Part shown: piece after piece, positions 23,793 through 64,000 of the stretch
Position numbering within the stretch: the first letter of the stretch is position 1
Layout of the letters: every line of letters starts with the position of its first letter
Assembly: GCA_951406725.2 (NCBI GenBank)
Contig: OX597836.1
Location: 744,001 to 808,000 of the forward strand
Reading direction: 5' to 3'
From: Octopus vulgaris
Taxonomy: Eukaryota
Length of the DNA stretch: 64,000 nt
Translations under genes and position numbers: made by a program
The notes under the pieces: model-generated
Seen by the model: the letters and a program-made list of their open reading frames with translations, nothing else
What the model was told of the DNA's origin: nothing
Databases searched by the model: none

Positions 23793-23865
23793 TCCTACCT
23801 GTCTGTTGTTGAAATATTGCAAAATTCATTCTGAAACTTACCTGCAAGGAAAATAGAAAATATAT
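23793..23865 (-). promoter_or_regulatory. Candidate recursive splice site with 43-nt RS-exon
   Basis: Minus strand attttctattttccttgcAG|GTAAGTtt (junction 23842/23841), then CAG|GTAGGA at 23799/23798. Confidence 0.65.
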
Positions 23866-24151
23866 GGTAATTAATAAATTCACTTTTATTCATGATTAGC
23901 ATTTTGTTACATTTAACAATAAAGACATATTTTTTTCTCATGTCTTTTTTATCAGCAAATATGATTCACTGAGAAATATACCTGTTCCGAATTAGGAAGT
24001 GGTATTCAACTTTTGCATAGACTCACAATAAAAAAAAAGGAAAGAAAAAACATAAAAAAATATACTGTTGACTCATAGTTTTATTTATGTATAATTATTT
24101 GTATACTGATAGATATGAATAATTAAAACTGCATGTTTATGTGCATGTGTG

Positions 24152-24292
24152 TAGGAAGGGCATCCAGCTGTAGCAACTATGCCAAATCAAACTGGAGTTT
24201 GGTGCTGCCTTCCAGTTTGCCAGCCATGGTCAAACCAAGCAAACCATGCCAGCATGAACAATGGACATTCAATGATGATGAGGATGATGATG
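24152..24292 (+). mobile_element. RTE 3' tail
   Basis: taggaagggcatccagctgtag...gatgatg. Confidence 0.8.
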
Positions 24293-24309
24293 ATATATAT
24301 ATACACATA

Positions 24310-24522
24310 CAGTGGTACTGAAAAGTTCCTGGCTTTGAGTAAAAGAAAATACAGGAGGATCAGTTAATTATAACTTTATTCAACATCTTCCCGTCACAGA
24401 TTCACACACTTATGGCAGCAGTCCTTCAATTTTTCTAAGACCCACAAAAGAACTCAGAAGGTTGGGCCTCCAACAAGGCTTTCGTGATACCCTTAAAGCT
24501 AGGAACTTTTCAGCACTCCTCG
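24310..24522 (-). mobile_element. Internally deleted mariner (MITE)
   Basis: TA on both sides; TIRs cagtggtactgaaaagttcctggcttt / aaagctaggaacttttcagcactcctcg; internal KCVNL*REDVE* mariner C-terminus. Confidence 0.85.
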
Positions 24523-24735
24523 TATACATATATACATACATATATATATATATATATACATACATATATATATATATATATATATATATATATACATACA
24601 TATATATATATATATATATATATATACATATATATATATATATATATATATATATATATATATACCGGAGTAAACATATAAATGTGAAACAAGGTGGAAA
24701 AAAGAGTACTCAAATACCAGTGGTAGAGTAATTTG

Positions 24736-24773
24736 CTGTCCGACGAACGGCAACGTGAAACTCAGAATAACAG
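24736..24773 (+). ncRNA. Minimal type-I hammerhead motif (variant CCGACGA core) in a Penelope-like terminal repeat (24664-24796)
   Basis: CUGU-CCGACGA-ACG(GCAA)CGU-GAAA-CUCAGA-AUA-ACAG; helix I CUGU/ACAG. Confidence 0.6.
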
Positions 24774-26549
24774 GTTTTGTTGAATTTTCTGCTGCTATAT
24801 ATATATATATATATATATATATATATACACACAAATATCTATACACACACACATGTACTATATATATATATTTTTTTATAGGGGATCCATAAAGGATTGA
24901 GGTATGTCAAAGTGAAGCATGCCACAAATTGGCTAGACAGAATGATGCAAAACAAACAATTAATTCATTATCATAGCACAGAATGCATTGATAAAGGTTA
25001 GTTCACTGCTGGAAGGTAATCCATAACTTTAGTAGTATCCAAAAGTATCCAATGTTAACTGGAACCCTAACTACGGTGTAAAAACAGAAAAAAAAAATGA
25101 CTAATGTGTTATGTGTTATGGTTACAATTGTTTTGTGAAGACTCTTTTTCTTATAACATAAGCATAGCACAGTCAGGTATTCAGTATGTATGACATTCAA
25201 CTCTCAACTCATCAGGGAAACCAAGCAAACAAATGAACAATGATGCGATCATTTTGCACCCTGGATGTATGATAAGGATTACACTTCTCACCAATGTTAT
25301 ACAGGGGTAAAAATGTGTAGAAACAATTATAACGATTTAAGATAAATAATGTTCATTCTATTTTCTATCATTATATCTCTCTCTCTCTCTCTCTCTCTCT
25401 CTCTCTCTCTCTCTCTCTCTCTCTATATATATATATATATATATATATATATATATATATATATATTTATATTTATATATCTATATATATATATATTTAT
25501 ATTTATATATATATATATATCTATATCAGCAACAACACACGTTTGATAAGCAAATGGTTACTATTAACTCCAGATCACGACAGACAGAGTGGAAGCTCTT
25601 GAAGCTGAGAGTTTTAACTTACGGAGACAATATTTACATATCACCTAAGGAAGCACAACTAGATCTCATAATGCAGGGAAACAGTTGCATAATCAAATAG
25701 CAGCACGCCTGGAGAACTACAAACAATATATGCCCAACCATACTCTTGTTGACATATAATGTTTATGCAAGCACAAATAGACATAAGAATGCATATATAA
25801 CGCACTGCATGACATTCTGTTCATTATCTGTTAACACAAGAATATAAATTTGGCACTTTTTAAGAGCCTAACTCTATTTAGCTGTGCTAAACAGTACCAG
25901 TTTTGCAAGGGAATATTGACACATATAACAACTCACAACCGCATCTATAAGTACAGTATTTTATCAATCACTTAATACATAGAATAAAAAAAATTATGAA
26001 TATCAATATGTAGCATTAAAATTTATGTGCTAAATTTCTTTTTTTTTTTTTGTTTGTGTGTGCATCTTTTCATCTATAAATTTGATGGCATTATGGTAAG
26101 GCTAAAGCAATTGTCTCATGTGGGAAAGAATTCCTTTTACTTCACTAAGAATGGAAAGAAAAACACAAACTTTTAAACAGACTTAGAAACATGTGTGAAA
26201 GTGTGTGTGTATAGTAGGTAATAAAGACACCAATCTGTGTGTGTGTGTGTGCATGTCAGATATAAATACAGACACAGAAACATATGAACATATGCACACA
26301 CACACACACTTGAACTCCTGAGTAATTTGTGATAGACTCAGGCACTTCAAAACAATGTTTATTTTTCCTTTGAACTAACAGCTATCTTCCCTCTTAGGAT
26401 GGAGTAATGTATGTGTGACGAGGGGTGTTACTGAAAGTAAAATACTGGTTGTGAGTTATAAGAATTGCCTTTCAGAAGGATGTAAGCTACACAACCTTTC
26501 CTTTCACCCTTTCCTAACAAATGAAAAATAAATGCAGTTTTATTAGAAT

Positions 26550-61168: not shown

Positions 61169-61215
61169 GTCTCTGATGACAGGATATCTATAATATCCTG
61201 AAACAGCTGCAAGAC
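61169..61215 (+). ncRNA. Minimal type-I hammerhead motif, probably inactivated
   Basis: GUCU-CUGAUGA-c-AGGAUAU(cuaua)AUAUCCU-GAAA-CAGCU-GCA-AGAC; GUA site changed to GCA. Confidence 0.7.
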
Positions 61216-61796
61216 TCTATCTATATCTTTTTCCTTATAAATGTCATGAAAATCTGTCTAACTTTTACAGAAAAGCAACATGCAGGGGCCTACTGGAACA
61301 TTATAATTCATCCCTAACCATCAGAGTTAAGATGGTCTACATTAGAAATGAGATCCACAGGACCATCATCATCATCATCATCATTGTTTAAATGTCCATC
61401 TTCCATGCATGCATGGGCAGTATGTGCAGAAAAATAGGAAGTGAAAACATGAACACCATGTTGATGGTCCTGATAGGGAATAACTACTCATATTCTTCTA
61501 CTAAACATCAGGATATCACCAGACCACCTAAAAAACAAACCCGCATATCCTAGGAAAACATGAACCTGCCACATCTTAATGAAAAAAGCAACTGCTGTAA
61601 TCAGTTGGGTGATCCAGAGAGATTGAATATATGATTGGCTCACCCCAAACCTTTCCCAAGGAGAGTTCTAGCCTATAATTAAATACAAGGATAAAATCTA
61701 TATCAGAATTTATCAAGTAGTTAGTGTGAAAAACCAGTTAAGGGAAAAATTTATACAAAATATATAATTAATTTATTCCCTTTTAAATACATTAAT

Positions 61797-61909
61797 TATA
61801 TTAAGGGTATTACTACAAGTGAATGCCTCATGTTATAAGGGACTTCAGTTTTGACTTTAAGAGTCCCTTATAGCGTGAGGCATTTATGTATAGTAATGCC
61901 CTTAATATA
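61797..61909. repeat. 48-bp-arm foldback; right arm and loop also at 43715-43777
   Basis: tatattaagggtattac...aagggact / agtccctt...gtaatgcccttaatata. Confidence 0.9.
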
Positions 61910-62384
61910 GTGTGTGTGTGTGTGTGTGTGTGTGTGTGTGGTGCAAAAAATATAGATAAGATGAAGACAAGCTAAAAAACAACAGCATATTAGATTTACC
62001 CTCAGGAATTAGGAAAAATTAGAAGGAAGTGTCCCTCACAGTTTGAACATATGCTCTTCTTATGAAAGAATAGACAAGGAAAAGTAAATGGTGAAACAGA
62101 AGAACATATGTGCGTCTATAAAATTGCTACAATATACTGAAGTGACTGGAAGAGATAAAGAGATCGCAAGAGAATTTTCCAGCTCCAGTCAGCAGCAAGA
62201 CTGTTGTAGTATAGCCCCATATCTTTCTATTTCTTTTAACTTTTGATAATCAGAAAAATCTGTGAAACCAGTTAAGCATGTAAATATAAACCATCTAAAA
62301 GATTCCCAGTGCATTTTCAACATATTTTTTCTACCCACTCTCTCTCTCTCTCTCTCTCTCTCACACACACACACACATTGCTAG

Positions 62385-63110
62385 ACCAGGTGATAAAAAT
62401 TACAGAAAGGATCATAGCTCAATTAATTAGAAAGTGAAGAAGCAGTGATGAGATGCAATTTGGTTTCATGCTAAGAAGAATCACTACCAATGCTGTCTTA
62501 CTGGTGTGGAAACTGCAAGAGAAGTACTTGGCCAAAAATAAACCTCTGCATTTAGCTTTAGTTGACATGGAGAAAGCCTTTGACAGGGACCCCCTTATCA
62601 GGTGAGCAATACGGAAGTTAGGGATAGATGGCTAATTGATGAAGCCTGTAAAACCCATGTACAGGGACACCATCAATTAGGTGAAAGTTGCCAATAAGTA
62701 TAGCAAGCAATATGGTGTTCAATTATGAATCCACCAGGTATGGAAGCAAGGTCTGGAATCAAAGAGCTTTAAAGTCAATTTAGCAAAGATCAAAATTCTA
62801 ATAAGTAGGAAAACAGACAAAATCACAGACCCCTTCAAGGAGATGGCTCTGCTCAATATGTAGAAAAGATGTTGGTAGAAACTCCATACAATGTATCCAG
62901 TGAAGGCTATGGACACATAAATGGTGTAGTGGTATCACTGGAAGATTAACAGAGAAAGTAGTCTTTACATGTGGCAGATGTGCAGGTCTGTTAAACACCA
63001 GAAATGTACAGAAACTAGACCCTTCAAATGTCTTGTGGCATCCTTAGAAGTAGAAGACAGTTTCTGCTACTTAGGTGACCAAATTAGCAGTGGTGGAGGT
63101 TGTTCCAAAA
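62385..63110 (+). mobile_element. RTE RT relic with internal deletion
   Basis: LQEKYLAKNKPLHLALVDMEKAFDR, CSICRKDVGRNSIQC...CGRC, FCYLGD. Confidence 0.88.
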
Positions 63111-63738
63111 GACCAAGTGTAATTGCAGCCTTAGTTTGTGACAGAACAAAACTTGAAGAGGAATAGAGAATTATATCTTTATGAAATAAAATTAACATAA
63201 AATCCCAATATTAAGTGAACATCAATTATTACCTTATATTGAAACGATTGTGAAGCTGAGATAAGTGAATGAATGAAATGTTCAGGTTAATTGCCTTTGT
63301 TTATCTTGTAGTGGGGAAATAAGTACTTGACCACATGATGTAAGCAACAGCTGCCCTTGAGAAATGCATTCCTTTTATTAGGCCACATTCATTAATATAT
63401 ATGATATAGTCCATTGGTAAACCATATAAGAGATATTTTCCATTAATACACATTTGAAGACGAAACATTCAGTGGTTTTTCCAATGACTGATTGAGGGTT
63501 ATGGTTACATTTATTCCTCAAAATATTTTAATTCATCATTGCTCTATTACATCATTGCAGACTAGGTTTTTGGTTTCTCTTGTAATATTTCTGGCAATAA
63601 TATCCATTGATTCTCTTTCAAGTCTTCCTTCAATGCATATTAAATTCAATTCCTTTTTTTTATAGTAATATAAGACATTGTCTGAAAGAGGTGTTAACTG
63701 CCACAAAGGAACAGAAAAGTACATTGAAAATATAACAA

Positions 63739-63825
63739 ATTTACCTACATACTGTTTTAAATGACAGGAATATGTTCTTGTTGATAAACTTACCTGCAAA
63801 TAAAAGAAGAAGAAAAAGAACATAA
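63739..63825 (-). promoter_or_regulatory. Candidate recursive splice site with 49-nt RS-exon
   Basis: Minus strand ttctttttcttcttcttttatttgcAG|GTAAGTtt (junction 63794/63793); no upstream AG until 63943; second donor TAG|GTAAAT at 63745/63744. Confidence 0.72.
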
Positions 63826-64000
63826 GTATTATTTGGTATCAATGTTTTTAGATAATCAAAAAAGATGATAATTTTAAAAACAGAAAAAAATTTACAGTAT
63901 GTATACATGGGCATATATATGTAGATACACAATTTCGAGTGACTTCACATAGACAATATACATAAACACATAGATAGGAATATGTATGCTGTATATATTT

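Follow-up and report, generated by a model that had tools for sequence, protein, structure and literature searches.

How is an intron of 230 kb removed from the transcript of an octopus gene? The question is raised by a 64,000-nt stretch of Octopus vulgaris DNA (G000:C23:744001-808000, from an assembly of 2.80 Gb), here called the window, which falls inside an intron of couch potato (cpo/RBPMS) and carries two sites at which a splice acceptor is fused to a donor. Fused sites of this kind, the ratchet points (RP) of recursive splicing, are known from Drosophila. Four of them are spaced along this intron, and exon 1 is joined to one of them in an assembled fragment; for these reasons we consider it likely that the cpo intron is excised piecewise, i.e. 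removed stepwise at ratchet points.

The window lies inside a giant cpo intron

The window was extended by 200 kb on each side, and protein-to-DNA mapping revealed that cpo is encoded on the minus strand of both flanks. The cpo proteins map colinearly, exon by exon (P0002 in ten colinear segments), one flank exon is 100% identical to cpo records of Octopus sinensis and O. bimaculoides, and the gene product includes an RRM_1 domain (PF00076). Given that cpo exon 1 and microexon A flank the window, the whole of it belongs to a single intron; the original prediction, made from the letters of the window alone, had indeed placed it in a very long intron and the gene on the minus strand. The cpo mapping gives the following framework:

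C23:971252, minus strand: end of coding exon 1 (donor at C23:971251)
Window 1..64000, minus strand: inner part of the intron that spans 230,425 nt between exon 1 and microexon A
C23:740826, minus strand: microexon A, an in-frame cassette of 33 nt, 3.2 kb past the left end of the window
C23:694396, minus strand: microexon B, an in-frame cassette of 39 nt, outside the window
C23:663220, minus strand: start of exon 2, 308,031 nt from exon 1

No cpo exon maps within the window when six proteins are mapped full length. The only two matches there, at 10637 and 5173, are short, come from the C-terminal tail of P0006, which is long, lie on opposite strands and fall outside the colinear exon series. 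Rfam gave no match in the window, and the long open reading frames, among the matches listed, are mostly microsatellite and long interspersed nuclear element (LINE) noise. The prediction that there is no coding exon between the two sites thus holds for cpo exons in the window, with the qualification that coding microexons are found just outside it. Among the 36 cephalopod-cluster proteins inspected, exon 1 is followed by A and/or B in 15 and directly by exon 2 in 5; the rest have another insert (3), another first exon (6) or lack the region (7). The largest protein cluster is represented by 15 of its 39 members among those listed.

Two fused acceptor-donor sites in the window

On the minus strand, each site has the sequence TTGCAG|GTAAGTTT, and its donor G falls at 63793 in one case and at 23841 in the other, exactly as had been predicted; on the plus strand, ACTTACCTG occurs twice in the window. 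The second AG|GTA donors expected 43-49 nt downstream are also present, as TAG|GTAAAT at 49 nt and CAG|GTAGGA at 43 nt. The claim that the sites lie in unique DNA poor in transposable elements was borne out using a local repeat proxy, for which the window was compared by blastn with no more than 864 kb of this genome: the site at 23841 falls within a repeat-free run of 2,780 nt, the second longest in the window, and 63793 in one of 888 nt that extends to the window end. That these are the only two motifs is correct for this orientation; the same word is present in the opposite one, as CAGGTAAGT on the plus strand at 19745, and was rejected as a site given that it is devoid of a pyrimidine tract and is repeat-derived. 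The features of the two sites are:

63794..63943, minus strand: acceptor of RP3, with an AG-free zone of 149 nt, a pyrimidine tract and TTGCAG
63745..63793, minus strand: predicted regenerated donor GTAAGT of RP3 and its frame-shifting cryptic recursive-splicing exon (RS-exon) of 49 nt
63739..63744, minus strand: second (RS-exon) donor of RP3, TAG|GTAAAT, with an ad hoc consensus score of 7 versus 9 for the regenerated donor
23842..63793, minus strand: predicted recursive segment from RP3 to RP4, 39,952 nt
23842..23882, minus strand: acceptor of RP4, with an AG-free zone of 41 nt, a pyrimidine tract, TTGCAG and a candidate branch point near -33
23799..23841, minus strand: regenerated donor GTAAGT of RP4 and its frame-shifting cryptic RS-exon of 43 nt, joined to exon 1 in a contig of run X12 (see below)
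23793..23798, minus strand: second (RS-exon) donor of RP4, CAG|GTAGGA, which scores 8 where the regenerated donor scores 9 and is identical in organism E

Elsewhere in the window, the plus-strand interval 19500-19800 that holds the antisense CAGGTAAGT is a decayed interspersed repeat, LINE-like by eye, and tandem units of 66-67 nt are found at 49081-49367 and 58788-58970, which probably belong to a repeat family common in octopus.

Five sites of like build between exon 1 and exon 2

A scan of 464 kb identified five minus-strand sites of like build, all of them TTNCAG|GTAAGTT:

C23:896085, minus strand: RP1, outside the window
C23:856437, minus strand: RP2, outside the window
C23:807793 (window 63793), minus strand: RP3
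C23:767841 (window 23841), minus strand: RP4
C23:717002, minus strand: RP5, outside the window, between microexons A and B

RP1 to RP4 fall in the 230,425-nt intron. In all five sites the AG-free zone measures 41-149 nt, TT occupies positions -6/-5, and a second donor is located 38-49 nt downstream. Over the 308,031-nt span from exon 1 to exon 2, TTNCAGGTAAGT occurs five times in sense and never in antisense orientation, where a third-order Markov model expects 0.05; CAGGTAAGT alone occurs five times in sense and twice in antisense (expected, 0.5 per strand). The consecutive segments from exon 1 through RP1-RP4 to microexon A measure 75,166, 39,648, 48,644, 39,952 and 27,015 nt, and those beyond, delimited by RP5, microexon B and exon 2, 23,791, 22,606 and 31,137 nt. 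The steps of roughly 40 kb that had been proposed therefore describe the segment between the two window sites and, as the segments span 23-75 kb, the middle of the range.

Exon 1 ends in GAG, and its ligation to any of these sites would create the full-consensus donor GAG|GTAAGT. By the ad hoc consensus score this donor (9) equals or betters the second donors of RP1-RP5 (7, 9, 7, 8 and 9, respectively). The RS-exons of RP1-RP4 contain a stop or break the frame, and that of RP5 (42 nt) is in frame. In the database cephalopod cpo proteins inspected, exon 1 is followed by microexon A, microexon B or exon 2, and no RS-exon was seen; the first six residues of the RP2-RP5 exons were found in none of 145 proteins, a comparison that is informative only for the in-frame RP5.

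A contig that joins exon 1 to RP4

Part of the region 23560-24500 is covered by 20 public runs; none is recorded as RNA, several were taken as RNA by guess, and of these X10, X12, X14, X15, X19 and X20 were aligned. Run X12, which has the same organism label as the best DNA run, yielded a contig of 269 nt that begins with 22 other letters and then matches window 23843-23597 on the minus strand without mismatch. These 22 letters correspond to C23:971254-971275, the end of exon 1, and are single copy in the genome. In the contig, the final 24 nt of exon 1 are therefore followed directly by GTAAGTTTC of RP4, with GTAAGT at 23841, 203,410 nt being skipped, and the sequence continues past the second donor into the intron. 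This is likely the expected recursive intermediate, in the form of a single low-depth contig from a run that is probably RNA. Junctions from the upstream exon had been anticipated at both window sites; the one obtained is that of 23841. The one-sided contig cover at RP4 (downstream in X12, X14 and X15, upstream in X10) was not counted as evidence of a saw-tooth pattern.

Conservation was examined with a DNA contig of organism E, in a comparison of 458 nt. The longest invariant run, 60 nt (23807-23866), spans the RP4 site; shuffling of the 27 listed events gives a P of about 0.05, a borderline value that concerns RP4 only.

The motif is in excess throughout the genome

The sequence Y9-N-TT-N-CAG|GTAAGT has 104 matches genome-wide, versus 6 for a control of the same composition (GTTAAG) and 1 for the reversed motif, i.e. 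a 17-fold excess. For Y12-N-CAG|GTAAGT there are 89 matches, against 22 for a GAATGT control and 3 reversed. Neighbour pairs closer than 300 kb, counted for 100 of the 104 matches, number 12 where 1.1 are expected, and all 12 are on the same strand. Among the first 30 of the 89 loci, a strong donor is located 25-80 nt downstream in 8, versus 1.8% of background windows, and AG|GTR at 30-70 nt is present in 5, versus 6.5%. A comparison of sense with antisense motifs in long introns had been proposed; sense orientation could be established for cpo only, where the enrichment is seen, and the genome-wide excess is one over control patterns.

Other arrays were also found. At C13:4468681-4805417, five plus-strand YAG|GTAAGTAC sites are distributed over 337 kb, and every one of them is followed by a second donor after 45-55 nt. 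They lie upstream of plus-strand DUF7042 exons at 5011926 and 5017636, to which they are linked by strand and position only; two weaker minus-strand motifs occur within the same 600 kb, and Pfam gave no family for 6 of the 8 candidate C13 exons submitted (of 42 listed). At C4:133498958-133647406 there are three minus-strand sites of the strict type, separated by 84 and 65 kb; a host gene was looked for at this cluster and not found. Positions +7/+8 are AC in all five C13 sites and +7 is T in all five cpo sites, a locus-specific extension. Near-identical ratchet-like motifs with a cryptic exon, apparently duplicated, are located at C23:40186293 and 40348802.

Proposed mechanism and its alternatives

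Following the Drosophila model, each acceptor and the weaker donor that lies 38-49 nt downstream of it would be recognised as a unit, namely a short cryptic exon. Exon 1 would be ligated to this exon, a step that is seen for RP4, and the donor GAG|GTAAGT would be regenerated. The regenerated donor would outcompete the cryptic exon's own donor, so that the RS-exon would leave no trace in the mRNA; GTAAGT at 23841, for instance, would then act as the donor of the next cut, and the cycle would be repeated along the intron. Judging by position, exon 1 would be followed by RP1, RP2, RP3 and RP4 in turn, next by either microexon A or RP5, and finally by microexon B and exon 2. Seen here are the anatomy of the sites, the host gene, the first-step junction at RP4 and, in database proteins, isoforms without the cryptic exons.

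Several observations weigh against stepwise removal. The X12 contig is single, has a mean depth of 4.5 and comes from a run only guessed to be RNA; the junction appears in 1 of the 6 guessed-RNA runs; and the evidence that the contig gives concerns only the first step, at RP4. In run X19 (organism F), a contig is unspliced across RP4; over 186 nt it shows 9 differences and 5 gap positions. The spacing of the sites is uneven, and in the 75-kb gap between exon 1 and RP1 a looser scan gave no convincing site. Genome-wide, some of the same-strand pairs arose by tandem duplication (C23, 40.19/40.35 Mb), 22 of the 30 loci have no strong donor within 25-80 nt downstream, and by the pattern used a second AG|GT donor is missing from all three C4 sites. 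Finally, 8 nt, AGGTAAGT, are common to the RP4 join and to exon 1's own donor, and with this identity a template switch could yield the same join.

The full exon outline present at every site suggests another possibility, namely that these are cryptic or poison exons: exon 1 would be spliced in, the downstream donor used and the resulting frame-shifted transcript destroyed, whereas productive mRNA would arise by direct splicing. Given that the host is an RNA-binding protein, this could be a form of autoregulation. In its favour, four of the five RS-exons break the frame or contain a stop, the X12 contig shows the first step only, and decayed isoforms would be absent from protein databases. However, a poison exon has no need to start with GTAAGT, yet all five do, and the genome-wide excess is specific to this hexamer; in flies, moreover, exons of this anatomy are skipped as a result of competition between donors (PMC8605326, accessible text). 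We regard this explanation as unlikely.

It is more improbable still that the motifs are chance, unused sequences and the junction a reverse-transcription template switch or an assembly artefact at the shared AGGTAAGT. The identity at the join, the dependence on one low-depth contig and the borderline conservation signal would agree with it; nevertheless, the join connects the correct upstream donor, 203 kb away, with a site that had been predicted from DNA before any RNA was considered, and the motif excess and the strand coherence are independent of the X12 contig. That RP4 serves as acceptor for an alternative last exon, with an intronic poly(A) site and a short RRM-less product, is barely credible: the X12 contig does extend past the second donor and a stop is reached 19 codons on from exon 1, but the first ATTAAA/AATAAA lies 2.3 kb downstream, and four further sites of the same build, as well as the donor hexamer at +1, would be left unexplained.

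Microexons and inserts at the exon 1-exon 2 junction

Stepwise removal at ratchet points also offers a possible origin for some of the small exons found at this junction. Microexon A starts CAG|TTAAGT, one base off the ratchet motif; the frequency of TAAGT in the span is 0.001, and none of the seven other mapped exons begins with it. In flies, a weakened ratchet donor leads to the cryptic exon being included (PMC8605326, accessible text), and on these grounds microexon A could once have been a ratchet point. An argument to the contrary is that in gastropod cpo proteins the same junction carries an insert of 10-11 residues that starts with Leu-Leu or Leu-Met. In addition, inserts starting with Val-Ser, which GTAAGT would encode, occur at the exon 1-exon 2 junction in three cephalopod-cluster and two tick proteins (P0135, P0143, P0144, P0066 and P0070), the tick insert following two different first exons. 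Judged on protein sequence only, these inserts are candidate expressed RS-exons; for the RP5 peptide, homology with the VSCDQ insert is no more than suggestive. A broader scenario joins these elements: ratcheting of the intron at EEE|VRTLF of cpo would have been inherited by flies and octopus from a protostome ancestor, and ratchet points would be a nursery for microexons, microexon A being one that lost its donor and the cephalopod and tick Val-Ser inserts being expressed RS-exons. The giant introns of the octopus would then be ratcheted in the manner of flies at a hundred or more sites. Taken as a whole, this scenario is possible but rather doubtful.

Further along the gene, cpo has alternative exons at C23:647492 (51 nt) and C23:635588 (54 nt), which code for similar RRM segments and are used singly, jointly or not at all by database isoforms. 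Database proteins also indicate candidate internal first exons at C23:679666, 690040 and 741397; the one at C23:690040 has an in-frame stop in this genome.

Comparison with known recursive splicing systems

In the accessible part of the literature, RNA evidence for recursive splicing comes from flies, with hundreds of silent sites, and from vertebrates, with a handful. The cpo intron of the octopus is nearly twice as long as the longest fly recursive intron of 10.1101/006163, and it is accompanied by a likely splicing intermediate and by the excess of the motif in the genome. If this interpretation is correct, fly-style ratcheting also operates in the other great protostome branch. Two questions would then become testable: is ratcheting an ancestral trait that was cut back in vertebrates, and do new microexons arise from ratchet points? 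The original prediction knew of no such description in molluscs; our literature search, which left subscription journals largely outside, found no paper on molluscan recursive splicing.

Sibley and colleagues reportedly described, in 2015, vertebrate recursive sites in long neuronal genes. These share with the octopus model a cryptic RS-exon, donor competition and very long introns. In contrast to vertebrates, which according to the accessible text of PMC2773006 have a small number of such sites and show no enrichment in sense orientation within large introns, this genome shows a fly-like excess, with at least about 100 strict motifs. The same text predicts computationally an enrichment of RP sites in large introns of insects and sea urchin, which resembles the motif excess described here; unlike our case, its accessible part includes neither a mollusc nor RNA. 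In the giant genome of the lungfish, heavy reliance on recursive splicing was not found, according to the accessible text of 10.1101/2024.12.11.627982.

The Ubx microexons mI and mII of Drosophila are expressed RS-exons in a long intron (10.1101/006163; PMC8605326, the latter in its accessible text), and as in octopus cpo, that intron combines silent ratchet points with in-frame microexons. The RP5 exon is likewise in frame, and related cephalopod proteins have a Val-Ser insert here. Unlike mI and mII, microexon A cannot re-splice, because it starts with TTAAGT and not with GT, and the RP5 peptide is in none of the 145 database proteins.

The closest parallel is provided by the Drosophila ratchet points of Ubx, kuz, luna, Bx and cpo (10.1101/006163; accessible text of PMC8605326 and PMC6110457). 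As in octopus, acceptor and donor are fused, the pyrimidine tract is strong, TT occupies -6/-5 (196 of 197 fly sites; 10.1101/006163), a short out-of-frame cryptic exon (about 50 nt in flies; PMC8605326, accessible text) ends at a weaker donor, and the sites form a series in a very long intron. Fly ratchet points were defined by junctions of an annotated donor with an intronic AG|GT (10.1101/006163), the type of join seen at RP4. The differences are the organism, a mollusc, and the scale: the octopus intron has 230 kb and segments of 23-75 kb, whereas the largest fly recursive intron has 132,736 bp and the fly segments a mean of 17,953 bp and a maximum of 63,580 (10.1101/006163). Moreover, the fly evidence includes lariats, saw-tooth patterns and reverse-transcription PCR, and that for the octopus sites consists of sequence and one junction. 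The host family itself is shared. In fly cpo, lariat evidence exists for two ratchet points (10.1101/006163); no cpo row was found in the accessible supplements of PMC6110457. The exon 5/6 boundary of the fly gene lies at or beside EEE|VRTLF (PMC5012703, accessible text), and the translation of primer cpo-R2, EVRTLF, places it at or beside the octopus junction. Because cpo is a known fly case, the octopus gene can be compared directly with its ortholog.

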